From the NCBI GenBank assembly GCA_963839865.1, contig CAWIWS010000030.1, positions 5,301-69,300 of the forward strand: a stretch of 64,000 bases of DNA. The letters run 5' to 3'. The stretch's first letter is position 1. Every line of letters starts with the position of its first letter. This document shows positions 9,510-49,415 of the stretch, piece by piece. A program made the translations under genes and the position numbers. Below the pieces are notes generated by a model that worked only from the letters and a program-made list of their open reading frames with translations, had not been told where the DNA came from and made no database searches. The stretch is from an uncultured Acidobacteriota bacterium (GTDB lineage Bacteria > Acidobacteriota > Vicinamibacteria > Vicinamibacterales > UBA2999).

Positions 9510-12426
9510 CTAGAACCGGACGCCGAAGGAGCCGAGGTAAGTGCGGCCGCCCGTCAGCCCCGGACGCGGTCTCGGGTAATTCGCGGTCGACGTGCCCTGC
9601 CCGAAACGCGCCCCCTTGACGTAGCCGGTGGGCAATCCATCGGCGTCGAGCGCGCTCGCCGCATCGACCGTAATGGTGGTGTCCCACGTGATCAGCTTGT
9701 CGTTGTTGAACACGTTGAGCACTTCGATGCGCGCCCACGGCCGCACGGTCTTCCAGACCGGAATCGAGTAGGTCGCGCCGAGATCGAAGAGCCCGTAGCC
9801 GGCGAACTCCTGGCTGCCGCGATCACCGAAGAAGAGCGTCTGCGATCCGTTGGCGCCAGAGCCCGGCAGTCGCGCGTAGCCCGGATTCCGCGACCGCTGG
9901 ATGGCGCTCAGCGGCACGCTGGCGGCGGTCAGGCTGTACGTGAGCGCCGAGTTGTAGCGCCAGATCGGGGCGATGTCGAGGCTGCCGAAGCGCCCCAGTC
10001 CCTGCTGGTAAATCGACCACAGGCGCACCTTGTGCCTCTGGAAATCGTCCAGGCGGCCCATCGGGAAGTCCCGCGCTTCGACCAGGATCTCGGGATAGTC
10101 GCCGAGCGGCGTGCCGATGCCCGGCTGGTTGGCGGCCTCGCCTTCGTAGTTGCCGTTGTTGGTGAGTTGCACCGTGTAGTGTCCCGCCACCGACCAGTTC
10201 CCGCGCACGTGATAGTCGCCCTGGAACTGCATCGCGCGGTAGTCGCGCACCGCTTCGTCGGTGTTGCGGTAGTAGGTGTTGTCGAACGTCCCGAAATTGA
10301 CGCCGCCCTGGACGACGGTCGTCTTGCCGGACGCCGACGGATCGTCGATGAAGGAATCGATGAGTCCGGTGGCCGTGCGCCAGATGTACATCGCGCGCAC
10401 CACGCCCTTTTCGCCGAGGTTCTGCCCCACCGACGCCGTCACCTCACGCGTGATCGGCGACTGCAGCCCGTCCTCGAGGAAGATGTTCGCGTTCGGGAAC
10501 GACCCGGAGACCACCGAGTAATTCGACAGGTCGAAGGCCGGCGCGAAGTCGAGTCCCTGCCCGGCCGGGCCGTTGTAGACGCTCGTCACGCGCGCCGGGT
10601 TGGCCACGGTCGTGTTGCGGCCGAAGATGCTCGACGTGTAGCGGCCCGAATAGTGGGCGTAGGACGCGCCGAGTACCGTGCGCCCGCTGCCGGTCGCGTC
10701 GTAGGTCGCGCCGATGCGCGGCACCCAGGACCCCGCGTCGGCGCCGGTGGCGCCACCGGTCGCCTCGCTCAGCGCATGCTCGTAGCGCAGCCCGATGTCG
10801 AGGCTGAGGCGGGCGGTCGGGCTCCAGCGGTCCTGCACGTAGAACGACGTCGTCGTGATGTCGATCTCGGCGCCGCGCGTCGGGATGGAGTTGCCGATCG
10901 TCGATGCGCCAGGAATCCAGACGGGGACGACGCGCCCGTTCGCGTCGATCACCGGCTTGCCCGCCACCGCGAGGTAGTCGGTGTTGAAGATGTAGCCGGT
11001 GGACGACTGCGAGTTGCCGCCGCGCAGGATGAGCTCGAACCGCTCGATGCCGGCCTTGACGTCGTGCGTGCCCCAGCCGGGGCGCGAGCCGAAGTACGAC
11101 ACGGCGCCCGTGATCTGGTTGTTGTCGCGGTCCTCGGGATCGTTGCGGTCGAAGTAGGCCGCATTGAATTCGAGGCCGCCGGGGGCCACGCGGCCGATCG
11201 TGAGGAACGGCGAATCCTGCAGGCGCGTGCTCGAGTTGCCGAACCGCGGGTGATTCGTCTTCTGCGAGTACTGCGCCGTCGCGAAGAAGCGCTGGGCGAG
11301 CACGCCGTTCCAGTTGGCCACGAGGAGGTGGCCGGGCGTGTCCTGGTTGTCACTCGCGTTGGGATCGATCGTCACCGGCAGCGAAGGCTTGAAGCTGTTC
11401 TGCCGGCGATCGGTGTACTGGACCTGCAGGGTCTGGTTCGTCATCGGCGTCGCCGTGACCTTGCCCTCCCAGCGATTCTGGTCGTCGGTCTGCTGGAACG
11501 GCGCCGCGGTCTGCGGGAGGGTAAGCGAGGTCTCGCTGGACTGCGACCGGCCGGCAAAGAAGAACCACACGCGGTCCTTGCGAATCGGCCCGCCGAAGGT
11601 GCCCTCGTAGTAGCGATCCATCTTGCTCTGCCGCTGCTGGTTGTTGGCCTTCTCGTACGGTGTTTCGTCGGTCCACGCGGAGTTGGACAGGTTGCTGCGG
11701 ATGCTGCCTGAGAACAGGTTGCCGCCGCTCTTGCTGATCACGTTGACCACGCCGCCGGAGAAGCGCCCGTACTCGGCCTGGATGCCCGACGTGAGCACCT
11801 GCGTCTCCTGCACGGCCTCTTCGATGTAGAGATCGTCCGGCCGCGCGAGGAGGTTGTCACCAATGTCCACGCCGTCGAGCAGGAACACGTTGTCATAAGC
11901 CACCGCGCCCGAAATCGTGACCTGGTTGACGTTGGGCGTGTTGTTCGTCAGACCGGGTGAGAATTCGGCGACGAGGGACGGTGTGCGCCCAATCGGCAGC
12001 GTCTCCACCTCCGGCGTGCGGATGTTGAGGCCGCCCGTGGGCCGGGTGAGGAGCGACGGGACCGAGGCCACCACCGTCACGGCTTCCGTCGCGGCCGCCG
12101 GCGACAACGTCGCGTCCAGGTCCGCCGAGCCCCCGAGCGGGACGTCCACGGCGCCGGTCACCGCCTTAAATCCGGCGAATTCGAAGGTCACCGAATAGCG
12201 GCCTGGCGGCAAACCGGCAAACTGGTACGCCCCGGCGTCGGTCACGACCGACCGGGCCCCCTGCTGGGCGGGGGATTCGGCACGGACGGTGGCGCCTGAA
12301 ATGACCAGGCCTGAGGCATCGCGGACCGTGCCGCCTAAGCACCCCGGTCTGGACGCCCTGGGCGCCCGCTGGCAGCGCCCAAAGCGCGGCGATTACCGCG
12401 GCGACGCTGAGAAAATATCGAGACAT
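9510..12426 (-). CDS. TonB-dependent-receptor-like outer-membrane protein with an N-terminal carboxypeptidase-regulatory-like domain; one apparent frameshift near 12330
   Basis: Signal peptide MSRYFLSVAAVIAALWALPAGAQG. CarboxypepD_reg-like stretch: TDAGAYQFAGLPPGRYSVTFEFAGFKAV. Plug-like stretch: ...QVLTSGIQAEYGRFSGGVVNVISKSGGN. A long beta-barrel follows, ending GRTYLGSFGVRF. Confidence 0.85.
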
Positions 12427-20203: not shown

Positions 20204-22813
20204 TTACCGAGGACCTACCTTAACGCCGACCATCTCGCGAAATGGCGCCAAGGCCCGATACTTCGCGAGATCATCGTCGCCGGCGACGGCCGTGCGACTA
20301 TAGCCGCTGTCGACCGCGCGCTTCAAGAACGCCAGGGCTGTCGGATCACGGCCCGCGAGCGCGTGCACGATTGCCGCGCGATATAAAACCTGCACGTCAT
20401 CGGGTGCGAGCGCCAGCGCTTCGTCCAGGCGAGCCGCAGCCTCGGCGGAGCGCCCCGCTTTCTCCAGGTAGACGGCCAAGGATGCGGTGTTCCGCGCATT
20501 TCTGGGATCCACCTTCAATTCCTCCGCGGCCTTGTTCGCCGCCGTCAGGTAAGCCTCCCGGGCGTCCGAGATCTTTCCGAGCTTTGCATAGGCGTCTCCG
20601 AGGTTGCGATAGCCGCTGGCCGAGTTCGGCCGAAGCGCGATGCCCTTCTTGTAGGCGTCGATCGCCTTCTCGTACTCGCCCTTTGCGTGGTAAAACGCGC
20701 CGATATTGATGTAGGCGCCATTCGATGGCCGCACCGCGATCGACTTCTCGTAATTCGACAGGGCGCGTTGGTCGTCGCCAAGCATCTGATAGACCGTTCC
20801 GAGTTGCTGGAAACCGATGTAGCTGTCGGGCTGGAGGGCGACGAGCTTCTCGAAGGCCTGCGCGGCCTCCTGGTACCGAGCGGCGTTGAACAATGCCAAA
20901 CCCAGGTCGTTGTAGTTGCCCCAATAACTCGGCCGGAGAGCGATGGCTCTTTGGAATTCGTCGATCGCCTCATCGACGTGGCCCTGGCGCGCGAGAATCT
21001 GGCCCAGCTGGCGGCGCGCGTCGTCGTAGGTCGGCCGGACCGCGAGTGCTTTCTTGAGTTCGTCAACGGCATCGTCCGCCTTGCCGCTACCGGCCAGCGT
21101 AGCGGCCAGGGCCAGACGCACCTCCGGCCTATCCGGGTCGAGCCTCAGCGCGGTCGTGCCTTCATCAATCGCCCGCCGCACCCACGAGGGCTCCCTGGTC
21201 TCGGCGTACTGACGCCAATAGGTCTCGCCGAGAGCCGCATGCGCCAGGGCGAATTTGGGATCGAGTCGGATGGCGTCCGATAACGACGCGGCGGCGGCCT
21301 CGAGATTGCCTTTCACGTCGCGACGATCCATGTAGGCCCTTGCCTGCCAATACGACGAAAGCGCGCCGGGGTCGCTCGTCGGCGGCCGGTCCACCTGCGG
21401 CCGGGCCGGGCCCGATACGCGGATCGACATCGCCTCGCTGACCGACATCGCCATTCGGGACTGCAGCTCGAAGATGCGGCTGAAGAGCCCGTCGAAGGAA
21501 TTCGCCCACGCGATGGAACGATCGGGTCTGACCAGGCTGACGGTGACTCGCAGCTGGTCTCCAGACTGTTGAACGCTGCCTTCGATCATGAAGCTGGCAC
21601 CCAATTCGGACGCCATCTTCGACAGTTCCGGGTTTCGCAACCGCGCTTCGACAACCGCGGCGCGGGACAAGACCGTCAGCGAGGGCGCGGCGGCCAGACT
21701 CGCGATGAGGCTCTCCGAGAGTCCCGCCGCCACGTAGTCTCTCGACGGATCGCCACTCATGTTGGTCAGCGGCAGGACGGCGACGACGGCCGGCGTCGCT
21801 AGTGAATCCCTGGCAACCGGCGTGGCCAGGAAGCGCCACGTCGCGACGCCGGCCACGATCAGGATCGCCACGATCGCCGACGCCATCAATACCCCGCGAG
21901 ACAACGCGCGCGCTGCCGACACGCTGCCCAGGGGCGCACCGATGACGGCATCCAACCGCTGCAGCACCTCGTGCGCCGATGCCGGCCGCTCCGCCGGGTC
22001 GCGCGCGAGGAGTGCGGCGACGAGATGCTCCAACTCCGCGGGCACCAGCGGCCCTATCGACGACAAGGGCGGAGCGTCGCTGCTCAACTTTGCGGTGGCC
22101 AGCGAGACAGCATCGTTCCCGGGAAAAGGCCGGCGGCCGCCCACCATCTCGAACAGCATCACGCCGAGCGCGTAGAGGTCGGCGCGCTCGTCAACCGCGG
22201 ACGAGACCATCTGCTCCGGCGCCGCATACCCAGGCGTGCCCATGAAGCCGGGTCCGCTCGTCGTGTGCCCCGCCGCCGTGACGGTGGTCCCGGTCGCCAG
22301 CATCCGCGCGATGCCGAAGTCGAGGACCTTCACCTGCCCGTCGGGACCCACGATGACGTTGCCCGGCTTGAGGTCGCGATGCACCACGCCCTGCGCGTGC
22401 GCCGCGGCGAGGGCCCGCGCCATCTGGCACCCGATGCCGACCGCCTCCGCCACCGGCATCGGCCCGCGCCGGTTTCGCTCGGACAGCGTCTCGCCCTCGA
22501 CGTACTCGAACACGAGGACGACGTCGTCTTCGTCCTCGAGGACGTCGAAGACGGTGGCGATGTTGGGGTGATTGAGCGCCGCGACGGCCCGCGCCTCGCG
22601 GAGCAGGCGGGCGCGGCCCTGCGAGCCTTCTTCGTCGGCGGCGCGCAGCGTCTTGAGGGCCACCTTGCGGTGCAGCCGCGGGTCGTCCGCCAGCCACACC
22701 GCGCCCATTCCGCCACTGCCGATGTGGCGAACCACGCGATAGGGGCCGACGGAAGTGCCGGGTTCGACCAGCCTCATGTGGGGAGGACGGCAGAGGATAA
22801 CACCGAACCGCAC
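20204..22813 (-). CDS. Ser/Thr protein kinase K1 with one TM helix, a periplasmic VAVLP(L/F)xNxSGD-type domain and a TPR array (869 aa, intact; alternative start ATG at 22777)
   Basis: Kinase motifs GSGGMGAVW, VALK, HRDLKPGN, DFGIA and GTPGYAAPE. TM helix LMASAIVAILIVAGVATW. Then VVAVLPLTNMSGDPSRDYVAAGLSESLI, followed by more than 8 TPR-like repeats (AIALRPSYWGNYNDLGLALFNAARYQEAAQAFEKLVALQP...). Confidence 0.9.
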   Translation of the reverse strand: MRFGVILCRPPHMRLVEPGTSVGPYRVVRHIGSGGMGAVWLADDPRLHRKVALKTLRAADEEGSQGRARLLREARAVAALNHPNIATVFDVLEDEDDVVLVFEYVEGETLSERNRRGPMPVAEAVGIGCQMARALAAAHAQGVVHRDLKPGNVIVGPDGQVKVLDFGIARMLATGTTVTAAGHTTSGPGFMGTPGYAAPEQMVSSAVDERADLYALGVMLFEMVGGRRPFPGNDAVSLATAKLSSDAPPLSSIGPLVPAELEHLVAALLARDPAERPASAHEVLQRLDAVIGAPLGSVSAARALSRGVLMASAIVAILIVAGVATWRFLATPVARDSLATPAVVAVLPLTNMSGDPSRDYVAAGLSESLIASLAAAPSLTVLSRAAVVEARLRNPELSKMASELGASFMIEGSVQQSGDQLRVTVSLVRPDRSIAWANSFDGLFSRIFELQSRMAMSVSEAMSIRVSGPARPQVDRPPTSDPGALSSYWQARAYMDRRDVKGNLEAAAASLSDAIRLDPKFALAHAALGETYWRQYAETREPSWVRRAIDEGTTALRLDPDRPEVRLALAATLAGSGKADDAVDELKKALAVRPTYDDARRQLGQILARQGHVDEAIDEFQRAIALRPSYWGNYNDLGLALFNAARYQEAAQAFEKLVALQPDSYIGFQQLGTVYQMLGDDQRALSNYEKSIAVRPSNGAYINIGAFYHAKGEYEKAIDAYKKGIALRPNSASGYRNLGDAYAKLGKISDAREAYLTAANKAAEELKVDPRNARNTASLAVYLEKAGRSAEAAARLDEALALAPDDVQVLYRAAIVHALAGRDPTALAFLKRAVDSGYSRTAVAGDDDLAKYRALAPFREMVGVKVGPR

Positions 22814-22879
22814 CAGGCCGCCGCTGGGCGCGGCAACCGGTGCGGTCCGGGACGAGGCTCAGGCTGGCGGGACGCCGGG

Positions 22880-23311: not shown

Positions 23312-25928
23312 CGTTTCACCTCTGCCGGGTTGACGACTAACGCCGCGAATCGCGGCAGCGGCCGGAGTTTCTCGAAGTCTTCTTCCGTGGCAATCGACCG
23401 GGACGTGATTCCTCCGGCCATGGCCCTCTCGATGGCGGCCAGCGCCCGATCGGTGCGGCCGGCGAGAGCGTGGACGACGGCGGCCCTCAGCTGCACCTGC
23501 CCGTCATCGCCCGCGAGCCGTTCCGCGGCGCCGAGGCTCTTGAGCGCCGCCGCGTCGTCACCGGCCTTTGGCCTGGTACACGGCGAGCCGCGCAATCACG
23601 CGCGCGTCGGCGGGGCTGACCGACACCTCCTGCTCCGCCAGCTTCACCGCCTGGCGGTACGCCCGGAGCGCATCCGCCTTCCGGCCCAGGTGCGTGTACG
23701 CGTCGCCAAGATTGCGGTGGGTGATGGCGCCCAACGGTCGAATCAACAACGCCCCTTCATAGGCGGCGGCGGCCTTCGCATACTCGCCCTGGCCGTAGTA
23801 GATGGTGCCCATGCTCGAGAACGTCTCGGCGCGCGGCTGGATGGCGGTCGCTCGCGAGTAGTAATCGAGGGCGCGCGCGTCGTCGCCCATGGACTGCGAC
23901 GCGGCGCCGGCCTGCGTGAGGAACAGCGACGAATTGGGCGACAGCGCAATGGCCTTCTCGAACGCCTCCAGCGCCTCGGCGTACTGCGATGCCTGGTAGA
24001 GCGACAGGCCCATGTCGGCATACAACGTCGACGGAGTTCGGCCGGATCGCGCTGGCCTTCTTGAATTCCGCGCGGCCGGCATCCAATTGTCCCTGGCGCA
24101 TCAGCACGCGACCCATGAGGCGAATGGCTTCCTCGGACGTCGGCTGCAGCGCGATCGCGCGCTCGACCTCCCGCCGGGCTTCGTCGTACTTGCCGCTGCG
24201 GAACAAGCGTCATCGCGGCGATGTAGCGCACGCTGGGCCGATCGGGTTCCAGACCCACGGCCACGCCCGTCGATTCGACCGCCTTCAGCGCCCAGGCCTT
24301 GTCGTTGGTCTGCACGTACATCTGCCACTGGGCTTCCGCCAGGCTGGCATGCGCGAGGGCGAACTTCGGATCCGCCGCCACGGCGTTCTCGAATTCCTTG
24401 AGCGCCGCTTGTGTGTTGCCCGCCAGGTCGCGCCGGTCGAAGAAGGCGCGGCCTTTCCAATAGGCGATCTGCGCCGGCTCGCTCGACGTCGGCAACGCCG
24501 CCGGCTTCTGCTGCGCCCCCGACGGCGCCTGCGCGGCGAGAGCGTCGGTCAGCGCGGTCGCCAGCTCGCCTTGCAGTGCGAACAGGTCCGCCGAGGGCGC
24601 TTCGACGGTCTTGCCCCAGGCCACGGGACTGATCGGTCCGCACGAGATTGAGCGTGACGCGCAAACGGTTCGACACCGATTGCACCGTGCCTTCCACCAG
24701 GTAACTGGCATCGAGCGCCTGGACGAATCCGGCACGGTCGGGATGCTGCTGGCGGGTCTCGTCCACGGCGCCGCGCGAGAGGACCGTGACCGAGCGGGAC
24801 GGCGGCGAGGCTCGTGATGAGGCTCTCCGCCAGGCCGGCGCCGAGGTAATCGTTCGACGTGTCACCGCTCATGTTCTGCAGCGGCAGGACGGCGACCACC
24901 GGCATCACCGGACCGTGAGCCGCCGGCCACTGCACGCGCACGACGACCGCGGTGACCACGGCAATGGCGAGCGCCGCGGCCAGCAGCGTGGTGCGCGGAA
25001 TGCCCCGGCGGATCAAGACCGTCCGTCGCGCGAGCGGCGAGGACTCGGCATCGCGAAGCGGACTCAGTTCCACCAGCACGCCGTCCGCGGTGGCCGGGCG
25101 CTTGCCCGGCTCGCGCTCGAGCAGCCGGGCCACGAGGCCCTCGAGGGCCGGAGGGACCCAGAGGCCCGAGGCCGTGAGCTTCGGCGCCTCGTCCCGGAGC
25201 ACCGAGGTGGCCAGCGCCACTGCGTCGGTGCCCGGGAACGGTCGCCGGCCGCTGACCATCTCGAACAGCATCACGCCGAGGGCGTAGAGATCGGCACGGC
25301 CATCCACGTTCCGCGACAGGTACTGCTCGGGCGCCGCATATCCCGGCGTGCCGACCAGGCCGCCGCCGATGGTGCCCGGCACGCTGTGCCCCATGTCGGC
25401 GCCGGCCGGCACCAGGCGCGCAATGCCGAAGTCGAGCACCTTGGCGCGCCCATCGGCGCCCAGCACCACATTGGACGGCTTGAGGTCACGATGGATGACG
25501 CCCTGCGCGTGCGCCGCGGCGAGGGCATCGGCAAGCTGCCATCCGACCTCGATCGCCTCCGGGACCGTCATCGGCGCGCGCTGCAGGCGCGTGGCGAGCG
25601 TGTCCCCCTCGACGTACTCGAAGACGACGATGACCTGGCCGTCGACGTCGAGAACGTCGTGGACGGCGGCGATGTGCGGATGATTCAGCGCGGCGGCGGC
25701 GCGGGCCTCGCGCAGCAGGAGTTGGCGGCCTTCACTGGTATCGCTGTCGGCGCCGCGGACCGTCTTGAGGGCGACCTTCCGGTGCAGGCGCGGGTCCTCG
25801 GCCAGCCAGACCACGCCCATGCCGCCGGCACCAAGCTGGCGGATGATCCGATAGGGTCCGACGGCTGATCCGGCGTGCACGTGGCTCCCGAAGGGGTGAA
25901 GGGCTGGCTGTCGGCCAGCAGAATACAT
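23308..25928 (-). CDS. Ser/Thr protein kinase K2, paralogue of K1 with the same architecture; at least 5 apparent frameshifts
   Basis: VGPYRIIRQLGAGGMGVVWLAEDPRLHRKVALKTV...HRDLKPSNVVLG...DFGIARLV...GTPGYAAPEQ. TM helix LLAAALAIAVVTAVVV. Then VVAVLPLQNMSGDTSNDYLGAGLAESLI. TPR pieces lie in four frames and end ...FEKLRPLPRFAALVVNPAEVKR. Confidence 0.8.
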
Positions 25929-25931
25929 TAG

Positions 25932-27203: not shown

Positions 27204-28494
27204 TCTATTCGTACCGCAGGGCCTCGACGGGATCAAGCGACGCCGCGCGGCGCGCCGGCCAGTAGCCGGCCAGGACGCCGACGGCCACCGACGTCGCCGA
27301 GGCCCGACGCGACCGCCCAGAGCGGCGGCGTGGCCGGGAACGTGGGGGCGACGAGCGCGATCAGCAGGCCGAGGGCCGACGCCAGGACGACGCCGGCCAG
27401 GCCGCCCGCGCCCGAGAGGATCGCCGCCTCGAAGAGGAACTGCCGCAGCACCTCGCGGCGGCGCGCGCCAATCGCGAGGCGGACGCCGATCTCGCGCGTA
27501 CGCTCGGTCACGCTGATGATCATCACGTTGGCGATGCCGATGCCGCCGATCAGCAGGCTCACCGCAGAGCAGCGCGATCGTCGCGATGAAGATCTGGATG
27601 CCGATGCGATCGAACTGCGCGATGATCTGGTCCGCGGTGTTCATCGCGAAGTTGTCCTCGGCGCCCGGCGGCACGTGGCGCAGCAGCCGCAGGATCGTCT
27701 GCGGCCTCCGCGCGGGCCTCCTCGCGCATCCCGGGCCGGGCCCGGATGTAGAGCACCATGTTCCGCGCGTCGGGGAACTTGAGGCGCGCCGTGTTCACGG
27801 GGATCGCCACCACCGAGTCGTTGCGGTTCTCGCCGAAGAACGTGCCCTTGCGCGGGGCCAGTTCGCCGATGACGTAGTAGCGGTCGCCGCCGAGCAGGAA
27901 CGACTGCCCCACCGACGAGCCCTGGCCGAACAGCGCCCGCGCGACGCTGGCGCCGAGCACCGCCACCTGCGCGCGCACGCGCTCCTCGGTGTCGGTGAAC
28001 GGCCGGCCGCCCACGAATTCCGCGCCGACGATGTCGTAGAAGTTCGGCGAGATGCCCTCGATGAGGACGGTGTCCGACTCGTTGTTGCCCGCCCGCGCGG
28101 TGAGGGTGCGCGTGCTCGTGACGGCCGGCACGATCAGCTCGATGCCGACGTCGCGAATCGCGGGCCCCAGCTTCTCGATCACCGGCGCGTACTCGGCCCG
28201 CAGTTGCGGACGCTGGACGTCCAGCTCCGTCGGGGCCGAATACGGCTCGCCGCTGTAGTGATACGCGAAGATGTTGTCGGTGCCCAATTCGCGGAACAGC
28301 AGCGCCACGCTGTTGCGGAGCCCCACGAGCGTGGAGGCCACGAGCACCACGGTGACGATGCCGATGACGATGCCCACGATGGCGAGGGCCGAGCGCGCGG
28401 GCTGGGCGCGCAGGGACTCGATCGCGAGCGTCGCGGCCTCGTTCAGCTCGTTGCCGGCGACGTCGAACGCGCCTCGAGGGGGTTGCGTGGCCAT
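27204..28494 (-). CDS. MacB/FtsX-type ABC transporter permease B (MacB_PCD + FtsX); apparent frameshifts
   Basis: [52 protein letters not shown]...[17 protein letters not shown]...[12 protein letters not shown]. Then [51 protein letters not shown], ending [19 protein letters not shown]. Confidence 0.8.
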
Positions 28495-28496
28495 GG

Positions 28497-29725
28497 CTAG
28501 TCGCTCCGAATCGCGCTGATGACGTCGATGCGCGTCGCGCGCCGCGCCGGATACCAGCCGGCGGCCAGCCCGCTCGCCGCCGAGGCGGCCACGCTCCACG
28601 CCACCGTCGCCGGCGCCACGCCGAGCGGCACGTCGAGAAGGCGCGCGAGCATCGAGACCAGCGCGACGGCCACGAGGGTGCCGGCCGCGCCGCCCACGAG
28701 CGACATCATGCGCGGACTCGGCGAGCACCTCGCGCATGATTTGCTGCCGCGTCGCGCCGAGCGCACGCCGCACGCCGATCTCGCGCGTGCGCTGCGTCAC
28801 CGAGACCAGCACCGTGTTGGTCACGACGACCATCGCCGCGAGCAGCGCCATGAGCGAAATGGGTCCCGCCGCCGCGCCGATGCGTTGCGAGAGGTTGGCG
28901 ACGAAGCTGCGCGCCGCGTCGGGCGTCAGCACGTCGAAGTTGTCGGCGACCCCGGGCGCCAGGGCCCGCTGCGCGCGCAGCGAGATGCGTGCGCGGTCCT
29001 CGCCCACGACGGAGTCGTAGCCCGTCGGCGGCCTTGGCGAAGATCTGCAGGGTGCGGGGCGCGCCGAACGCCCGCTCGAACGCGGTCAGGGGGATCCACA
29101 CGTACTTGTCGAGCGATGCGCCGCCGGAACTGCCCAGGCGCTCCTGCACGCCGATGACCTCGAACCGGCGGCCCGCGATCCGAATCGGCTGGCCGAGGGG
29201 CTCGCTCACCGGGAAGAGCGCGTCGGCGACGTCGGCGCCAATCACGGCGACCTGCGCGCCGCTGGCATCCTCGTCCGCGCGCAGGAAGCGGCCGCGCGCG
29301 ATGCTCAAGTCGCGGAGGCCCGCCAGCACCGACGTCGTCCCGGTGATCGACACGCCTTCGAGCTTGCGGCCCGCCGACGACACGTCCGCCCTGGTCTGCG
29401 CGTTCGGGGCGTAGTCCACGAGGCCGCCGGCGTAGCGCTCGAGGAACTTGAGCTCGCTCCGCCGCATCGGCGGGTTGCGCTGGAGTTGCTCCTGGAGTTC
29501 CCGGCGGGAGATGCGCCCGGGCGAGGCGACCTGCGCCAGCAGGAATGTATCGGAGCCAAACGTCCTCGCCGTGGTCATCCGCGCGTACATCGCGACGCCG
29601 TCGAGGGCCGCGACGACGAAGACGATCGTGGCCACGGCCACGGCGATGGCCAGGGCGCCGAGGCCCGCGCGCAGGGGGTTGCCGACCAGGGCCGCCCCGC
29701 CTTGTCTGACGGCTTCACGCAACAT
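28497..29725 (-). CDS. MacB/FtsX-type ABC transporter permease A (MacB_PCD + FtsX); apparent frameshifts
   Basis: MLREAVRQGGAALVGNPLRAGLGALAIAVAVATIVFVVAAL...AQVAVIGADVADALFPVSEPLGQPIRIAGRRFEVIGVQE. Then [37 protein letters not shown], ending GWYPARRATRIDVISAIRSD. Confidence 0.8.
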
Positions 29726-31075: not shown

Positions 31076-33118
31076 GTGGGGCTTATGGCGAAGCCCGCCG
31101 CGGCCCCCACCGAATCCACCGTCGAAACCGCCTGTCCGCTCGATTGCCCTGACGCCTGCTCGCTGCACGTGACACTGCGCGCAGGCCGTATCCACAAGAT
31201 CGACGGCTCCCCTGCGAATGAGGTCACGCGCAGCTATATCTGCGCCAAGGTCCGCCACTTCGACAAGCGCGTGTACGGCGACGACCGCCTGCTCTACCCG
31301 GCTGTCCGCAAGGGCGCCAAAGGCTCCGGGCAATTCCGGCGGACGACCTGGGAGGTGGCGCTCGACCTCATCGCCGAGAAGATGCAGGCCGCGCGCGACG
31401 CCGGCGCGGCCGACACGATTCTGCCGCTGTGCTACGGCGGGTCGAACGGCTTCCTCACACAGGACTACGCCGACGCGATCCTGTTCCGCCGCCTTGGCGC
31501 CTCGCGCCTCCTGCGCACGGTGTGCGCGGCGCCGACCGGCGCGGCCAACCTCGGGCTCTACGGCAAGATGGCGTCGACGGTCTACCAGGACTATCCCTCC
31601 GCGAAGCTGATCATCATCTGGGGCGTCAACCCCGGCGTCACGGGCATCCACCTGATGCCCTATCTGAAGGAAGCCCGCGACAACGGCGCTACAATCGTCG
31701 TCCTCGATCCGCGCGCGACGACGGTGGCCCGCCAGGCGGACATGCACCTGGCCGTGCGGCCGGGCACGGACCTCCCCGTGGCCCTCGCCCTGCATCGCCA
31801 CCTCTTCGAGGACGGTCACGCCGACGAGGCGTTCCTCGCCGCCCACACCGCGGGGCGCGGCGGAACTGCGCGAACGCGCACGGCCGTGGACCTTCGCGAA
31901 AGCGGCGGACGTGAGCGGCGTCCCCGAGGCGCAGTTGCGCCGGCTGGCGGACCTCTACGTGAAATCGACGCCCGCCCTGGTGAAGTGCGGATGGGGCCTC
32001 GAACGAAACCGCAATGGCGGCAGCGCGGCCGCGGCCGTGCTCGCGCTGCCCGCGGTGGCCGGCAAGTTCGGCGTGCGGGGCGGCGGCTACTCGATGAGCA
32101 ACTCCGCGTCCTGGAATCATCGATCGCGCCGTGGCTCGCCGACACCGAACCGCCGACGCGGGCCGTCAACATGAACAAGGTCGGACGCATGCTCACGGAA
32201 CCCGAGGGCGCGCCGATCAACCACCTGTTCGTCTACAACTGCAACCCGGTGGCGACCCTGCCCGACCAGCGGCGCGTGATCCGCGGCCTCGAGCGCGAGG
32301 ACCTGTTCACCGTGGTCTTCGACCAGGTGATGACCGATACGGCGATGTACGCCGACGTGGTGCTGCCCGCGACGACGTTCCTCGAGCACTACGACTTCGC
32401 GAGGGGCTACGGCGCCATCTCGCTGCAGCTGGGCAAGCCGGTGATCGATCAGGTCGGGGAATCGCGCGCCAACACCGACGTCTTCATGGACCTCGCGCGG
32501 CGGCTCGACCTCACCACCGACGGCGATCCCGCCGACGAACTCGAGGCGATGCTGGCCGTGCTCGGCGGCCTGCCCGAAGCCGATCGGCAACGACCTGCGC
32601 GAGACGTGGAAGGCCACGCCGGCCCACGACGGCCGGCCCGTGCAGTTCGTGGACGTGTTTCCCCGGACGCCGGACCAGAAGGTGGACCTCTTCCCCGACG
32701 TGCTGCGACAAGCAGGCGCCGCTCGGCCTTTACGGCTTCCAGGCCGACCCGGCCACGGCGGACTTCCCGCTGGCGCTGATTTCCCCGTCGAGTGAAAAGA
32801 CCATCAGCTCCACGCTCGGCGAGTTGTCGCGGGCCGACGTCGTGCTGGAGATGAACCCGGACGACGCCGACGCGAGGGCGATCGAAGAAGGCGATCCGAT
32901 CCGCGTGTTCAACGCGCTCGGCGAAGTCAGGATCCGGGCGAAGCTGACGCTCGCTGGTGCGTGCGGGCACGGTGTCGATGCCGAAGGGCGTGTGGCGACG
33001 CCACACGGCGAACGGCTTCACGTCCAACGCGCTCGTGCCGGACACGTTGATCGGATCTCGGCGGGGGCGCGTGCTTCAACGACGCGCGGGTGCAGGTCGA
33101 GAAAGTGCAAAGTTCATA
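31076..33118 (+). CDS. molybdopterin (bis-MGD) oxidoreductase family protein; several apparent frameshifts
   Basis: N-terminal Fe-S motif CPLDCPDACSL. Then TWEVALDLIAEKM...CYGGSNG...AKLIIIWGVNPGVTGIHLMPYLKEARDNGATIVVLDPRAT...DMHLAVRPGTD. Then LFVYNCNPVATLPD...FTVVFDQVMTDTAMYADVVLPATTFLEHYD. C-terminal MopB_CT piece: MNPDDADARAIEEGDPIRVFNALGEV. Confidence 0.8.
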
Positions 33119-33152
33119 GTTCAACGTTCACTGATTGAATTGGAGACAGGAA

Positions 33153-33182
33153 GGGCCGGGCGCCGCATCGCGGCCCCGGCCC
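33153..33182. terminator. GC-rich hairpin (GGGCCGGG...CCCGGCCC) between convergent genes
   Basis: Sequence reads gggccgggcgccgcatcgcggccccggccc, followed by tggttcgcctttctg. It lies between the stops at 33118 (+) and 33199 (-). Confidence 0.5.
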
Positions 33183-33198
33183 TGGTTCGCCTTTCTGC

Positions 33199-33426
33199 CT
33201 ACACTTCAATCGGCAGTTTGCCGCGGCCACCGCGGCTGGCCTGACCGCCCTTGCGGCCGGCCGTCCGCGCTTCATCAGCCGACCACTCATGCGCCGTGCC
33301 CTTGGCATGAGCCGCTCGGCCCCCTTTACTGGCAATCTCTCGCTGCTTCTCTGTCGACATCGATGCAAACCCGCGGCGGGCTTTTCTTGCTTCCAGCACT
33401 AGGACCTCCTTGTTCGCCCGGTCCAC
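33199..33426 (-). CDS. KGG-repeat general stress protein (YciG/GsiB-like)
   Basis: RGFASMSTEKQREIASKGGRAAHAKGTAHEWSADEARTAGRKGGQASRGG shows the typical KGG-domain repeats. The ORF is intact. Confidence 0.75.
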   Translation of the reverse strand: MDRANKEVLVLEARKARRGFASMSTEKQREIASKGGRAAHAKGTAHEWSADEARTAGRKGGQASRGGRGKLPIEV

Positions 33427-33654
33427 GATTCGAGGTTCGCGATTCGCAAGGGACTGTTGCGAATGGCGAGGGACGAATGGGTTGGCGGCGAATCTGGTTG
33501 AGGTCTATAGCGAATCCCGTGCCAGCTCAACAGGATTACAAGTCTCGCAACTGGTTTGTACTCAATCGTTTGCGGAGACACATACAGAGACAAAATCGGA
33601 CAAGTTTCCAGCTGTGCATTGAATCGCTACAGATGGGCTTTGCCGAGCCTGAAA

Positions 33655-33867
33655 TCAATACGTCGCGCGGTCGGGACGAATGGGGCGGAAGACGTCGCAA
33701 TCGGCGCAGTTGCGAACGTCGAACTCGTAGCGCACGACCGGCCAATACATCGGGTGCGCGCAGTAGACGAGCTGACCGTCGACGATCGTGTGGGAACCGA
33801 GGTCTTCGGGAATGTCCGTGGTCCGTCGACCGTACCAACAGCAGCGGTGGCGCTCTTCGGGTTCCAC
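33655..33867 (-). CDS. small Cys-rich hypothetical protein (70 aa)
   Basis: (V/M)EPEERHRCCWYGRRTTDIPEDLGSHTIVDGQLVYCAHPMYWPVVRYEFDVRNCADCDVFRPIRPDRATY. Strong GC3 codon bias supports coding. It has five Cys, including CAH and CADC. I recognise no family. Confidence 0.45.
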   Translation of the reverse strand: MEPEERHRCCWYGRRTTDIPEDLGSHTIVDGQLVYCAHPMYWPVVRYEFDVRNCADCDVFRPIRPDRATY

Positions 33868-33947
33868 TAGGCGATCATAATCGGGAACCGGGAGCCGGGA
33901 GTCGGGGGCCTGCCGCGCCGAAGCCGAAGGCGAAGGCGGGAGTCGGC

Positions 33948-33953
33948 TACAAT
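33948..33953 (+). promoter_or_regulatory. -10-like box TACAAT, 6 nt before the ATG at 33960
   Basis: Sequence reads gtcggCTACAATcgttccATG. No SD motif is present. Confidence 0.4.
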
Positions 33954-33959
33954 CGTTCC

Positions 33960-34286
33960 ATGAGCATGTGTGGCGGCCCTCCCGGCCCGGAGCAAGTGGC
34001 GACCAACACCAGCGGACGGATCGTCTTCTGCGTGAAGTTCCAGAAAGAGCTGCCAGGCCTCGACGCGCCGCCCTGGCCGGGTGAGATGGGCCAGCGCATC
34101 TTCGCGTCGGTCTCCGCGCAGGCGTGGAAGTTGTGGGAGGACCGTCAGAAGATGATCCTCAACGAGTACCGCCTCATGCCGTGGCAGAAGGAAGGCCAGG
34201 AGTTGATCCTCAAGCACATGGAGGATTTCTTCTTCGGCGAAGGCTCCGCGCTGCCGCCCGACTTCGTCCCGCAACAGAGCAAGTAG
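33960..34286 (+). CDS. yggX: Fe(2+)-trafficking / oxidative damage protection protein YggX (alternative GTG start at 33997)
   Basis: GRIVFCVKFQKELPGLDAPPWPGEMGQRIFASVSAQAWKLWEDRQKMILNEYRLMPWQKEGQELILKHMEDFFFGEG lines up with the YggX pattern (xxIFCxxLxxExEGLDxxPYPGELGKRIYxxISKEAWxxWxxxQTMLINE). Confidence 0.8.
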   Translation: MSMCGGPPGPEQVATNTSGRIVFCVKFQKELPGLDAPPWPGEMGQRIFASVSAQAWKLWEDRQKMILNEYRLMPWQKEGQELILKHMEDFFFGEGSALPPDFVPQQSK

Positions 34287-35630
34287 CTAGCCGCGCACCA
34301 CGGCCAGGACCGGATCGATCACGAACCGCAGGCGCGCGTGCGCATCGCGCACCGCCTGCTCCGCCTCCGCGGGGCCGGCCGCCCTCGCGAAGATGAATCC
34401 CAGATAGCTCGCCCCCTCGGGCAGCGGCACGAGCCGCTGGTCCGGCTTCGCCGTGATCTCGACGCCCGGTGACCCCTGGCACGGCCCGCGCCTCATCCAC
34501 GCCTTCCGCGCGCCGGAACACGCCCGCCCGGGGAATCGGGATCATCATCACCGCCGACGCGGGCGCTTCACGCGTCCAGTCGCGTCGTGGGCTCGCCCAG
34601 GGCGTGGCGCAGCAGCAGGTCCTCCAGGCCGCACGTCTCGCCCGAGGCGTGCGTGAAGCGCAGGGCCCGCGCGCACAGGCCGCCGATGGGCCGCGCCGCC
34701 GCCTCGAGCACGTACACGCCGTCGGCGTTTACGCGGCACTCCGCGTGCACCGGACCGTGTTCGAGATCTGATGGCGCGCGCCGCCGCCGCCACGGCCTCA
34801 CCGACCTGCCGGAGGACGCGCGTCGCCGGCCCGCGACGGCGTGACGTAGATCGTCTCCTCGAAGAACGGCCCTTCGAGCGGGTCCGGCTTGTCGAACATC
34901 GCGAGAACGCGGAGCTCGCCCCGCTCCATCAGCGCTTCGACCGCGTATTCAGCGCCTGGATGTAGCGCTCCACCTGGATGCACGTCGGCTTCGGGGTCGC
35001 GCAGCTCGCGCACCTCCGGAGCCGCCAGCAACTGCTGCACCCGCGCGAACGCGGTCCTGAAGCTCGCCGCATCGTCCACGCGGATCACGCCGCGGCTCGC
35101 CGACAGCACCGTGGGCTTGACGACGGCGGGAAACGACACGCGCGGCAGCACGCTCTCCGCCTCGACCGCGGTCGACACGGTGAAGAACGCCGGCGCCGGC
35201 ATGCCCGCGGCGACGCAGGCGCCTGCGGAACAGGCGCTTGTCCCTCGAGGCCGCCGCGGCGTCCGGACGGGTGCCCCGGCAGGCCGAGCAGTCGCGCCAC
35301 GTGGGCGGCAAGCACCGTGGGCCGATCGCCGACGGCGAGCACGCCCTGCACCGGCCGCGCCTGCAGCGCGGCAATCACCGCGTCCGCGGACCGCCATTCC
35401 TCGTGGAACCGGACGGCAATGGCGCCGTCGCGCCACGGATCGTCGAGCTGATCGCAGCGGTCGGTGGCGTACACCAGCTCCACGCCCATGCGCGTGGCCG
35501 CGTCGTCAAACATGCGCGTCTGGTACCCCGTCGTCGTCGCCAACAGGAGCACTCGGCGCGGCGCCCCGTCCCCGTGCACGTTCATCGTTGTTGAACCGTG
35601 ACTGTTGGACGTTGACGTGTTCGAGTTCAT
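34287..35630 (-). CDS. ATP-grasp domain ligase (L-amino-acid-ligase-like); several apparent frameshifts
   Basis: MNSNTSTSNSHGSTTMNVHGDGAPRRVLLLATTTGYQTRMFDDAATRMGVELVYATDRCDQLDDPW...VLAVGDRP. Then FPAVVKPTVLSASRGVIRVDD...EYAVEALMERGELRVLAMFDKPDPLEGPFFEETIYVTPS. Then HAECRVNADGVYVLEAAARPIGG. The ATG at 35628-35630 overlaps the upstream stop (ATGA). Confidence 0.75.
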
Positions 35631-37023
35631 ACCAGAGCCACCTGCTCTGCGGTGGGCTCCGCTCAACAGTACCAGGGCTCATTCAGGTAGGGCACCGCCG
35701 CGCGGATGTGGGGCGGGTAGGGCTGGTGCGAACTGGTCGGGCCGGATGACTTCGTCCACCAGTGATCGCACCGCGTCGAACACTTCCGTCCGCGGACGCG
35801 TCATCCGGACGCCGACGGTCTCCATCACGCGCGCTTGCAGCGCGTCCACGTGCGGATCGGGATGCCGCCACGGGTACGTGAGGGTCTTCGCGTCGAACGC
35901 GCCGATCAACGACCGGATGTCCGGCAACTCGAGCAGCCGCGACTGCCAGGTGACCAGCAGGCGAATCCCCCACTGCACGGGCGCGACGTGCTCGGCGAGT
36001 TGCAGCTCGTCGACGACGTCCAGCAACTCGCGATAGCCGTCGCGCGTGGTCCACGGCGTGAAGGCCACGAACGTCGGGGCCAGCGTCAGGCCTGCGTCAC
36101 GGCAGAGACCGGCGGCTTCAATGAAGTCGGCGCGCGTGTGCCCCTTCTCGAGCTTCTCGAGCACTGCGTCGTCCACGGATTCCACGGCGCTCGTCACGAA
36201 CGCGCAACCCGTGCGTGCCAGGACCGGGAGCAGGTCGCCGATGCGCGAGCAGGTGCTCGACCTTGATCGTCACGTCGTAGGTCAGCGCGGGCCACTCGGC
36301 ATGCAGCGCCTCGACGATGCCGCACGGCGTGCGCCGGGCCGTTCAGGAAATCCGGATCGCCAAACGTGATGTGTTCGCGCCCCCTGCTCCACCTGCGCGC
36401 GGATGTCGGCCAGGACCACCGTCTACCGGGACGACCCGGAACTGACCGTCGTACACGGGCACGATCGGGCAATGCCGGCAACGATGCTTGCAGCCCCGCG
36501 TGGCATCGGTTGCCCCGACGACGCGGCGCGTGCCGTCGGGCATCTGCAGCGCGGCGTAGCGCGACAAGGACGGGAGGCCGGTGCGATCGGGTTGGATGAA
36601 CGTCAGCCTGCGGAAGGCCAGGCGGGTGCGAAGACGGGGGCGAGGCGAAGGCGCGGGCGGCGACGGTGCGGTCGCGAGGGCGACGAGCGCGTCTTCGGCT
36701 TCCGGACCGAGGACGTGCGTCACGCCGTGTGCGCGGAGCAATTCGTCGTTGAGCGGCGCGTACAAGCCGTAGGCGCAGAGGATGGCCGCCGGGTTCCCGG
36801 CCCGGATGCGATCCATCACCGGCAACGCCAGCCGCGTGGCCGTGTGCATCGGCAGGTAGAACGCGACGAGGGTGGCGGCCGACGCCACTTCCGGCGGCAG
36901 CTTGTCGCGCGACAGATCGACGGCGGTCACGTCGCATCCGGCCCGCCTCAGCCATGCCGCCGGCGAGGCCAGCCCGAAGGGCTGGCGGCCCAGGTCATAG
37001 GTCGAGATCAGCAGGATGCGCAC
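35627..37023 (-). CDS. B12-binding-domain radical SAM protein with a CUAEP selenocysteine tail (in-frame UGA at 35663-35665); several apparent frameshifts
   Basis: MRILLISTYDLGRQPFGLASPAAWLRRAGCDVTAVDLS... is the B12-like N-domain. ATRGCKHRCRHCPIV is the CxxxCxxC motif. Then REHITFGDPDF, VTSAVESVDDAVLEKLEKGHTRADF and the tail RAAVPYLNEPWYC-TGA-AEPTAEQVALV-TGA. Confidence 0.8.
35635..35659 (-). other. candidate SECIS hairpin immediately downstream of the in-frame UGA
   Basis: The minus strand reads GAGCC(C)ACC-GCAGAGCA-GGTGGCTC. It starts 4 nt after the UGA. The stem is 8 bp with one bulged C, and the loop is 8 nt. Confidence 0.4.
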
Positions 37024-37030
37024 GTGCGAT

Positions 37031-38542
<1,512 letters not shown>

Positions 38543-38573
38543 AGGCGAGGCGTATTGTATCCTCCGGTCAGCA

Positions 38574-39316
38574 TGGCGCTCGACGACTATCGACGGAAGC
38601 GGGATTTCACGAAGTCGCCGGAGCCGACCGGGGACGCCACCCGCCGGCGACAGACCGGCGCGCCCCTGTTCTTCTGCGTCCAGAAACACCTGGCCTCGCA
38701 CCTGCACTACGACCTCCGGCTCGAGTGGAACGGCGTGCTCCTGTCGTGGGCGGTGCCGAAGGGCCCGTCGATCGATTCCCGCGACAAGCGGCTGGCCATG
38801 CACGTCGAGGATCATCCGCTCGAGTACGGCACCTTCGAGGGCGTCATCCCCGAGGGGTACGGCGCCGGAATCGTGATGCTCTGGGACGAGGGCACGTGGG
38901 AGCCCGAAGTGGAAGACGTGGACGCGGCCCTTCGCAAGGGCGACCTCAAGTTCCGCCTGCACGGCTACAAGCTGAAGGGCTCGTGGGTCCTCGTGAAGAC
39001 GCACGGCTTCTCCCCTTCGACAGGCTCAGGGCAAGCGGCCGGCAAGAGCTGGCTGCTCATCAAGCATCGCGACGACTGGTCGGGCCCCCTCGACATCACC
39101 GAGTTCGCGCCGCTCAGCGTGAAGACCCCCAACGCCGATTTCGCCGACATCATCGGCGACGGCGCGCCGGACGTGTGGACGCGAAACCCGCCGGCGAAGA
39201 CCGGCGACACCGGCAAGATGTTCCGGCGGATCATCCAGGCGGCCCTCGCAGCGAAAGCCGCTCCGACACCCGCGCCGACGCGCGCGCCCAAAGCGAAGAA
39301 GAAGACGCGCCGCTGA
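38574..39316 (+). CDS. stand-alone DNA ligase D 3'-phosphoesterase (LigD-PE) domain protein (247 aa, intact)
   Basis: [16 protein letters not shown]...[77 protein letters not shown]...[15 protein letters not shown] matches the LigD PE-domain pattern as I know it. Confidence 0.8.
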
Positions 39317-39398: not shown

Positions 39399-39866
39399 AT
39401 GGGCACCCACCACCGCGGCACGCCGGCTGAAGTTCGCGCGCTTGACGCCTTCATCAAGCTGATGCGCGCCGCCGACAGCCTCTCCGCCGACCTCAACCGG
39501 CACGTGGCCGACGCCGGTCTCACGCTCGGCCAATTCGGCATCCTCGAGGCCCTGCTCCACCTGGGCCCGATGTCGCAGGGCGACCTGGGCGCGAAGCTGC
39601 TGCGCAGCGGCTCCAACACGACCACGGTCGTGGACAACCTCGAGAAGCGCGGCCTCGTGCGCCGCACGCGGCGCCGCGACGACCGGCGCGTCATCGACGT
39701 GTCACTCACCCCGGAAGGCCGCCGCCTGATCGCGCGGCTCTTTCCGGAACACGCGCGCCGGATCGTCCGGCTCCTCGGCGCGCTTTCCCAGGACGACCAA
39801 CGACGTCTCGGCGACCTGTGCCGCACGTTGGGCCGGAGCCTTTCGAAGGAGAACGCAGAGTCATGA
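39399..39866 (+). CDS. MarR-family transcriptional regulator (155 aa, intact)
   Basis: LTLGQFGILEALLHLGPMSQGDLGAKLLRSGSNTTTVVDNLEKRGLVRRTRRRDDRRVIDVSLTPEGRRL shows a winged-helix MarR pattern. Confidence 0.9.
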   Translation: MGTHHRGTPAEVRALDAFIKLMRAADSLSADLNRHVADAGLTLGQFGILEALLHLGPMSQGDLGAKLLRSGSNTTTVVDNLEKRGLVRRTRRRDDRRVIDVSLTPEGRRLIARLFPEHARRIVRLLGALSQDDQRRLGDLCRTLGRSLSKENAES

Positions 39867-40717
39867 GCACCCGCACCATTCTGATTTCCGGCGCCACCGG
39901 CCAGCAGGGCGGCGCCACCGCCCGCGCGCTCGCCGGCCAGGGCTTCACGATCCGCGCGCTCACGCGCAAGCCCGGGAGCGACGCGGCCAAGGCCCTCGCG
40001 GCCGCCGGCGCGCAAATCGTCCAAGGCGACCTGGAGGACGCCGCTTCACTGAAGGCGGCGCTGGCGGGCGCCTGGGGCGCCTATGGCGTGCAGAACACGT
40101 GGGAGGCGGGCGTCGAGAAGGAAGAGGAGCAGGGCAAGCGCTTTGCCACGCTCGCTCGCGAGGCCGGCGTGCGGCACTTCGTGTACGCGTCGGTGGGCTC
40201 GGCGCACCGGAAGACCGGCATCCCCCACTTCGACAACAAGGCGCGCGTCGAGGACACGGTGCGCGGACTCGACTTCCCCTCGCACGTCATCATCCGCCCG
40301 GTGTTCTTCATGGAGAACCTGGTGAGTCCCTGGTTCCTCAACGGCGACAAGATCTACACGGCCCTGGCCCCCACGACCGTGCTGCAGATGATTTGCGTCA
40401 AGGACATCGGCCAGTACGGCGCGCTCGCGTTCACGAAAGCCGAGCAGCTCAAGGGCCGCGCGCTCGACATCGCCGGCGACGCGGTGACGATGCCGCAGGC
40501 CGCGGCGGCGCTCTCGAAGGGCCTGGGCCGCCCGGTCGAGTTCGTGCAGATCCCGATGACCGAGGTCCGGAAGAACAGCGAGGACTTCGCCCTCATGCTC
40601 GAGTGGTTCGAGCGCGTGGGCTACGACGCCGACATCGCGGCCAACCAGCGCGAGTTCGGCATCACGCCCACGTCGCTCGCGGAATGGGCGATGGGGCTCT
40701 CAGGAAGGGGAAAGTAG
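39863..40717 (+). CDS. NmrA-family NAD(P)-binding protein (284 aa, intact)
   Basis: MSTRTILISGATGQQGGATARALAGQGFTIRALTRKP...IVQGDLEDAASL...RHFVYASVGSA...IPHFDNKARVE. The ATG overlaps the MarR stop (ATGA at 39863-39866). Confidence 0.85.
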   Translation: MSTRTILISGATGQQGGATARALAGQGFTIRALTRKPGSDAAKALAAAGAQIVQGDLEDAASLKAALAGAWGAYGVQNTWEAGVEKEEEQGKRFATLAREAGVRHFVYASVGSAHRKTGIPHFDNKARVEDTVRGLDFPSHVIIRPVFFMENLVSPWFLNGDKIYTALAPTTVLQMICVKDIGQYGALAFTKAEQLKGRALDIAGDAVTMPQAAAALSKGLGRPVEFVQIPMTEVRKNSEDFALMLEWFERVGYDADIAANQREFGITPTSLAEWAMGLSGRGK

Positions 40718-48900: not shown

Positions 48901-49415
48901 CCCGCCGCCGCCCCAGCTGGCCTTGAGCATCACGGGGATAGCCCACGCCGGCGGCCAGGCTGGAGGCCTCGGCCGCATCGGCCGGCAGCGGCGGCGTCGC
49001 GGGCATCACGGGCACTCCCGCCGCCACGGCGAGCTCGCGCGCCGACACCTTGTTGCCCAGACGCCGCATCACCTCCGGCGGGGGACCGACGAACGTCAGC
49101 CCGTGGGCCGCGCAGGCGTCGGCGAAGGCCGGATTCTCCGAGAGAAAGCCATAGCCCGGATGGACGGCGTCGGCGCCGGCGTCGAGCGCCACCCGGATGA
49201 TGTCCTCGATGTCGAGGTACGCGTCGACCGGCGCCTTCCCCTCGCCGACGAGATAGCTTTCATCGGCTTTGGTCCGGTGCAACGAGAAGCGATCCTCCTG
49301 CGAGTAGATCGCGACCGTACGAATCCCGAGTTCCGTCGCCGCGCGCATGAGACGAATGGCAATCTCGCCGCGGTTGGCGACGAGCAGGCACTTGATCTTC
49401 CGGTGGAGGGTGCAC
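45961..49415 (-). CDS. pyc: pyruvate carboxylase (single-chain, about 1150 aa); apparent frameshifts near the N-terminus (about 48950 and about 49400)
   Basis: [51 protein letters not shown]. Biotin carboxylase: [16 protein letters not shown]...[14 protein letters not shown]. Carboxyltransferase: [19 protein letters not shown]...ECWGGATFD...HFHTHDTSG. Biotinyl domain: [36 protein letters not shown]. Confidence 0.9.

Follow-up and report, generated by a model that had tools for sequence, protein, structure and literature searches.

The minus strand of a 64,000-nucleotide stretch of contig CAWIWS010000030.1, from an uncultured Acidobacteriota bacterium (the whole stretch is called the window below), carries at 35627-37023 a gene for a CUAEP-tail B12-like/radical S-adenosylmethionine (SAM) (seleno)protein, in which an in-frame UGA close to the 3' end most likely encodes selenocysteine (Sec, U). 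The assignment comes from a three-frame reading of the DNA, from matches to the profiles NF040546 and PF04055 and from the closest homologue. At a probability of roughly 0.8, we read the gene as an orthologue of the NF040546 family whose UGA is decoded as Sec by means of a small hairpin, whose frame breaks are errors of the assembly and whose chemistry is ArsL-like by homology.

The CUAEP-tail radical SAM gene

Read from a GTG start at 37023 to a TGA stop at 35629-35627, and after five +1 frame corrections, the gene encodes a protein of 464 amino acids. This frame-corrected protein, with U written as C, was used as the profile query. The NCBIfam model NF040546, "CUAEP/CCAEP-tail radical SAM (seleno)protein", an equivalog model with a curated cutoff of 500 bits, matched it at 634.4 bits (E=1e-190), with residues 3-462 aligned to profile positions 1-467 of 468; this full-length match bears out the family identity that an earlier note had proposed from the letters alone. 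The radical SAM core was recovered by the Pfam profile PF04055 (58.7 bits, same protein). Its CxxxCxxC motif, GCKHRCRHCP, which the earlier note had also placed in the body of the gene, reads directly at 36492-36469 and supplies C178, C182 and C185 as the ligands of the [4Fe-4S]/SAM cluster, all three invariant in 79/79 family members. The N-terminal domain matched the B12-binding-like PF02310 weakly (18 bits, E=0.0027, under the gathering score of 32.1), and PF02310 is also recorded for some close homologues. The second-best NCBIfam model was ArsL, NF040542 (E=2e-79, residues 3-397).

Conservation across the same 79 members singles out six invariant Cys/Sec positions, namely C178, C182, C185, C272, C452 and U/C453. 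Cys272, with its codon at 36204-36206, is the sole invariant cysteine beside the cluster ligands and the CU pair. At the C-terminus, C452, U/C453, A454, E455 and P456 are kept in at least 95% of the members. The nearest database protein is 76% identical, and NCBI has already applied the family name NF040546 to a Vicinamibacterales protein (P0105). Judged on these matches, the gene is a genuine orthologue of the NF040546 family, from a Vicinamibacterales-like acidobacterium. The family is already curated, and the gene adds a member to it, not a new kind of system. The CxxxCxxC core, the WYC-[U/C]-AEP tail and the Sec/Cys alternation are all common to the family and to this copy, which shows no family-level difference from other members and is frame-broken in the assembly. 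The passage on CUAEP in the preprint of Haft names the family as an uncharacterised CU-motif selenoprotein (bioRxiv 10.1101/2022.07.06.499078), and the family is unmentioned in a 2026 review catalogue of prokaryotic selenoproteins. A sequence search of the PDB returned distant B12-type radical SAM relatives only (AprD4, 6fd2, E=6e-9; and 9ccb), with no structure of the family or of a close relative.

At the 3' end, the minus-strand letters at 35706-35627 and the C-(TGA)-A-E-P string match on direct reading, to the letter, what the earlier note had quoted. In the three-frame reading, the tail frame ends in RAAVPYLNEPWYC, the TGA, AEPTAEQVALV and the final stop; over 35706-35627 it gives IRAAVPYLNEPWYC before the TGA and the same eleven residues after it. 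The WYC-TGA-AEP core spans 35674-35654. Within it, the codon TGT of Cys452, the first of the CU pair and invariant as cysteine, lies at 35666-35668, and the UGA, taken as Sec residue 453, at 35663-35665. AEP then follows as GCG GAG CCC (35662-35654), and ACC GCA GAG CAG GTG GCT CTG GTA leads to the final stop of the tail frame, TGA at 35629-35627. The tail AEPTAEQVALV, 11 codons at 35630-35662, is read as translated on the strength of the AEP codon variation and the tail length in the orthologues described below. An automatic open reading frame (ORF) at 35679..36197 stops at 35679 in the neighbouring frame, ending ...APHPRGGALPE, just as had been reported from the ORF list.

Translation of the UGA and the conserved hairpin

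Orthologous genes were scanned at one genome per species, which yielded 80 loci, mostly from Vicinamibacterales and other Acidobacteriota metagenome-assembled genomes. A TGA-type alignment (A1) was built from 49 sequences, that is, 48 of the loci and the window. Across 78 orthologous loci, the column of the window's TGA holds TGA in 48 and TGC or TGT in 30, and in every case its codon is preceded by an invariant cysteine and followed by AEP, which is the pattern of a Cys/Sec column before AEP that the earlier note had expected. Among the 49 TGA-type sequences, the AEP codons never differ at their first two bases (A1 columns 10, 11, 13, 14, 16 and 17), and at their third bases every synonymous variant occurs. 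That the AEP codons on the 3' side of the UGA vary at third positions only shows that the UGA is translated. The tail is 11 codons long in 47/49 Sec forms, whereas in Cys forms it is poorly conserved and ranges from 4 to 11 codons; this contrast places the extra conservation of the TGA-type tails at the RNA level. Among the 120 database homologues listed, 119 end ...WYC, which bears out the claim that ordinary gene calling truncates the protein. From this comparison of sequences, the UGA most likely encodes Sec, and the protein would end ...NEPWYC-U-AEPTAEQVALV, not ...WYC.

A codon bias was also seen immediately upstream of this column. Of the 49 TGA-type genes, 42 write the cysteine before it as TGT, whereas all 29 Cys-type genes use TGC; the nucleotide just 5' of the UGA may influence whether the codon is decoded or ends translation.

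The coding region just past the UGA contains a conserved hairpin, which we regard as the probable selenocysteine insertion sequence (SECIS). It occupies 35633-35649 on the minus strand and consists of a 5' arm CAGAGC (35649-35644), a loop AGGUG (35643-35639) and a 3' arm GCUCUG (35638-35633), with its stem starting 13 nt past the UGA and its loop at nucleotide 23 (the U of UGA being nucleotide 1). In the 49 sequences, the helix formed by columns 23-28 and 34-39 is paired in 89.9% of cells, against 40-53% in controls with slid partners. Changes on both sides occur in 5 of 7 pairs (24 cells), e.g., CG to AU or GC at 23-39 and AU to GC at 24-38 and 26-36, and 0 of 500 shuffles reached the observed pairing or covariation. 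RNAalifold predicted the same helix independently. On average, Sec forms make 5.8 of the 6 pairs at this position and Cys forms 2.1, and the loop reads AG[G/U]UN in 47/49 sequences. The bacterial SECIS (bSECIS) model (PMC13188914) describes a 4-16 bp stem and a 3-9 nt loop with G in its first two positions, a UGA-to-loop distance of 16-37 nt and a minimum free energy (MFE) of at most -7.5 kcal/mol; the hairpin falls within every one of these bounds, with a 6-bp stem, a 5-nt loop AGGUG, the loop at nucleotide 23 and an MFE of -9.2 kcal/mol.

The layout resembles that of the SECIS of Escherichia coli fdhF, which likewise is a stem-loop that closely follows its UGA within the coding sequence and has an apical loop opening A-G-G-U. 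In fdhF, the UGA is followed by 11 nt and then by GGUUGC-AGGUCU-GCACC, and the loop starts at nucleotide 21 from the U of UGA, vs 23 here. The stem here is shorter than that of fdhF, a perfect helix of 6 bp (7 bp in some orthologues) with a 5-nt loop and without the bulged U, and it lies inside the last 11 codons, where it abuts the start of the next gene.

A different hairpin had been drawn in the earlier note, at 35659-35635, with GAGCC(C)ACC pairing to GGUGGCUC. That fold is physically available to the RNA: its 8-bp helix, interrupted by one bulge, closes an 8-nt loop, and it comes out as the MFE structure when the 39 nt that follow the UGA are folded. It and the conserved hairpin are mutually exclusive, and the comparative data led us to reject it as the functional element: it shows 1 double-change cell, 465 of 500 shuffles score as high, and its pair 15-35 fails in 17 of 48 sequences and its pair 20-31 in 20, e.g., by an uncompensated synonymous change from GAG to GAA. 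The note was therefore correct that a hairpin can form there, and the element that orthologues conserve is the smaller one at 35649-35633. Folding of the single sequence 35610-35680 (71 nt) gave a structure no better than shuffles (z=0.13), which is uninformative at 69% GC.

We also considered AGGUGG, the loop with the G that follows it, as a Shine-Dalgarno site for the next gene, an ATP-grasp ligase, and rejected it. Pairing is 5.77/6 in the 30 loci in which the ligase lies more than 60 nt away or is absent vs 5.78/6 in the 18 in which it abuts, and a Shine-Dalgarno-like motif stands at that place in only 1/29 Cys-type loci.

Frame breaks and alternative readings

In the three-frame reading, five +1 frame steps separate the GTG at 37023 from the tail, and where an NF040546 gene is expected to run in one frame apart from its UGA, the given sequence changes frame five times. 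Alignment of the DNA with eight orthologues placed four of the steps as single-base insertions, with events at 36421 (36419-36423), 36378 (36376-36380), 36325 (36323-36327) and 36239 (36237-36241), all four of them outside homopolymer runs. For the fifth, the zone is 35700-35745, where body and tail join through a linker of variable length, and its exact base is not placeable. Orthologues read PPHPR[T/A]xIPYLNEPWYC across this linker; here the tail frame (frame 0) gives PPHIRAAVPYLNEPWYC and the body frame (frame 2) APHPRGG, and dropping one base within about 35745-35700 puts body and tail in frame. The earlier note had rightly seen that the body is out of frame with the tail and that one base joins them. 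The position that it gave for this base, 35700-35706, is possible but not unique, and the gene as a whole needs five frame corrections, not one.

From their pattern, the five breaks are likely to be single-base insertion errors of the assembly and not features of the organism. Assembly error is favoured over gene decay because the neighbouring genes carry the same frame steps, and because the corrected gene has zero internal stops, deletions or lost motifs, with a profile match over its full length.

The frame steps extend well beyond this gene. At least five genes are broken by +1 steps consistent with single-base insertions, at 32571-39235 and at about 48955: there are 4 in the 3' end of the molybdenum (Mo)-oxidoreductase gene (32571-33113), at least 3 in the ATP-grasp ligase gene, 5 in the radical SAM gene, at least 3 in the gene of a POT transporter and 1 in that of pyruvate carboxylase (near 48955). 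The patchiness of these errors looks like that of a patchily polished long-read assembly.

Several results weigh against the combined reading of a Sec-decoded, ArsL-like NF040546 gene broken only by the assembly. The gene as given is no open reading frame, and frameshifts are far denser in it (5 in 1.4 kb) than in several ORFs of 2.4-3 kb elsewhere in the window, which are intact. In the window sequence alone, the hairpin that is not conserved is the more stable of the two (-16.7 vs -9.2 kcal/mol), and Rfam gave zero matches at the gathering threshold over the whole window, a permissive search of 35590-35700 returning noise only. The genes selA, selB and selD and a tRNA-Sec gene were not found in the 64-kb window or in the flanks of the 80 orthologues: ARAGORN detected zero tRNA genes in the window, a tblastn search of the window and of the 80 loci for E. 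coli SelA, SelB and SelD returned noise only, and Pfam found none of the 20 largest ORFs of the window to be Sec-related. Sec decoding by this genome is thus an unproven prediction from sequence, the sel genes having been sought in the window and flanks only. The pairing of the gene with the ATP-grasp ligase is looser outside Vicinamibacteria (L051, L059, L067, L074, L079). As for ArsL, the NF040542 score of 267.8 bits lies below that model's cutoff of 450, the alignment stops at residue 397, and the RCCLKC tail is not present, the tail here being WYCUAEPTAEQVALV; arsM, arsQ and an ars operon were not seen among the ten recurrent clusters of flank genes scanned against Pfam.

The frame data bear first on the alternative that the five frameshifts are real, so that the gene is dead or very recently inactivated and its CU tail and hairpin are relics. 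Such a pseudogene would account for a body split five times across three frames in the sequence as given, and for a frameshift density that peaks at 32.5-39.3 kb while the long ORFs elsewhere stay intact. Yet all four resolvable lesions are 1-nt insertions, the corrected gene regains a full-length profile match without internal stops, deletions or loss of motifs, and neither the hairpin nor the AEP codons are damaged. The same type of lesion also appears in unrelated neighbouring genes and in pyruvate carboxylase 12 kb away, and decay of five adjacent genes at once by insertions only is less likely than one unpolished stretch of assembly. We hold a pseudogene to be improbable, and errors of assembly in a functional gene remain the preferred account of the breaks.

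The decoding agent raises a second alternative, in which the UGA is read by a tRNA-Sec-like cysteine tRNA or by an acidobacterial allo-tRNA and the residue is Cys or Ser. Such tRNAs have been described, among them possible nonsense-suppressor allo-tRNAs in Acidobacteria (PMC5389517), and the searches of the window and orthologue flanks do not show the Sec machinery for this genome. A general suppressor needs no hairpin, though, and the hairpin here co-varies with the TGA state, has the spacing of a SelB-type element and carries a G[G/U]U loop like that of fdhF. Alternation of Sec and Cys at one column is the classic signature of a selenoprotein, NCBI curators class the family as a selenoprotein, and selenoproteins are known from Acidobacteria (PMC1794560). 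Suppression accordingly strikes us as very improbable, less so only than the last alternative, and Sec is still the residue that we expect at position 453. That last alternative, an ordinary stop after ...WYC with the next 33 nt serving as an untranslated spacer or a regulatory hairpin for the ligase, fits the way in which nearly all listed homologues are called and the AGGUGG placed at Shine-Dalgarno distance in the window (7 nt before the ligase ATG), but it is the hardest of the three to credit, because the AEP codons change only synonymously in 49 sequences, Cys-type orthologues read CCAEP across the same column, the tail is always in frame and has a near-constant length in Sec forms, and the hairpin is as conserved in the 30 Sec-type loci with a distant or absent ligase.

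Neighbouring genes and proposed chemistry

Immediately downstream lies a frameshifted ATP-grasp gene of the L-amino-acid-ligase type (34287-35630, minus strand), assigned from an orthologue with PF13535 and PF18603 (LAL_C2). A ligase directly follows the selenoprotein gene in 62 of the 70 loci with room for it. Its ATG at 35630-35628 overlaps the selenoprotein stop in an ATGA (35630-35627), and from this overlap it follows that translation of the ligase is probably coupled to read-through of the UGA in this genome; if translation ended at the UGA, 33 nt upstream, the coupling between the genes would be lost. The ...TATGA junction is found likewise in many orthologues (e.g., L002, L006, L007, L010). 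In five loci (L008, L011, L015, L028, L031), the spacer that follows the stop of the tail is taken up by short tandem repeats, e.g., 9-mers resembling CAGGTGCGA and, in translation, a GKSGKS-type periodicity.

Directly upstream is a gene for a POT-family oligopeptide:H+ symporter (37031-38542, minus strand) with at least 3 frame changes, identified through its orthologue (TIGR00924, 434 bits; PF00854) and adjacent in 39 of 68 loci. The recurrent flank genes, among the ten clusters scanned, are the ATP-grasp ligase, POT, YggX, a LigD 3'-phosphoesterase-domain (LigD-PE) gene, CofD and the Mo-oxidoreductase. A biosynthetic cluster reaching further than the ligase and POT was considered and rejected: the other recurrent neighbours resemble lineage synteny.

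Other genes of the window were recorded alongside. The molybdopterin oxidoreductase gene (31085-33113, plus strand), of the DMSO/selenate-reductase superfamily, is convergent to the operon, has best NCBIfam matches that are all below cutoff, is without an in-frame TGA here and is found again in 35 orthologous loci, 2-3.5 kb downstream. Upstream of POT lie the LigD-PE gene (38237-39316, plus strand), a gene for a MarR-like regulator (39399-39866, plus strand) and an NmrA-like gene (39818-40717, plus strand). The LigD-PE gene also recurs in 35 orthologous loci; its antisense frame is open in this GC-rich genome, which gives rise to long artefactual ORFs joined to the POT gene. The following have no bearing on the finding: two minus-strand genes for Ser/Thr protein kinases (20207-22858 and 24552-25931), one of them with a long tetratricopeptide-repeat tail, and, nearby, genes for a TonB-dependent-receptor-like protein (9513-12392) and a MacB/FtsX permease (27562-29085).

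Among characterised proteins, the closest guide to function is ArsL of arsinothricin biosynthesis. In ArsL, what the RCCLKC at the C-terminus binds is As(III) and not a second cluster; the enzyme splits SAM to yield a 3-amino-3-carboxypropyl (ACP) radical, which it attaches to the As(III) held on the Cys-rich tail. Both proteins combine an N-terminal Rossmann-like domain with the CxxxCxxC core and end in a short tail rich in cysteine. The differences lie in the tail, WYC[U/C]AEP with two chalcogen ligands here vs RCCLKC with three cysteines in ArsL, and in the partner, which here is an ATP-grasp ligase. A paper on ArsL describes six absolutely conserved cysteines, every one in the cluster motif or the tail. 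In the CUAEP protein, Cys272 may serve as a third ligand together with the Cys-Sec pair of the tail. Adjacent Cys-Sec dipeptides also occur in other CU-motif selenoproteins, namely HgcA, the MerB-like SaoL and MerT variants, whose folds are unrelated; compared with these, the CU pair here belongs to a radical SAM enzyme and lies 12 residues from its C-terminus. The CU dipeptide is proposed to ligate a heavy metal or metalloid in the sections of the 2022 Haft preprint that treat it, and the preprint's CUAEP passage contains neither the SECIS helix nor Cys272 nor the ligase partner.

By analogy with ArsL, a mechanism can be sketched. The UGA at 35665-35663 would be decoded as Sec, with the small SelB-type hairpin within the last 11 codons as its signal. 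The flexible Cys-Sec tail, perhaps together with Cys272, might then bring a soft metal(loid) or chalcogen, as substrate, within reach of the radical SAM site, which may generate an ACP radical. The ATP-grasp enzyme could in turn ligate an amino-acid-like product for transport by POT. We regard ArsL-like chemistry of this specific kind for a CU-tail enzyme as a tentative and rather doubtful proposal. Its fullest form is a shade more speculative still: an ArsL-like ACP transferase capturing As, Sb, Se or Te, with the coupled ligase and POT, might make and move an unknown organo-metalloid amino-acid dipeptide, an antimetabolite in the style of arsinothricin or bialaphos that would be widespread in soil Vicinamibacteria, with ligase expression gated by selenium through read-through of the UGA.

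For annotation, the gene offers a worked example of a selenoprotein that is truncated by gene callers and hidden further by frameshifts of the assembly. The family is abundant in soil Acidobacteriota, with 8000 candidate sequences scored, all at E of at most 1e-20. To what was recorded for it, the present analysis adds a SECIS supported by covariation, a clean split between Sec and Cys forms in which the hairpin is lost along with Sec, one further invariant cysteine, a ligase as conserved partner and a characterised relative, ArsL, with a metalloid-binding tail. Together, these give an uncharacterised family a testable ArsL-like hypothesis.

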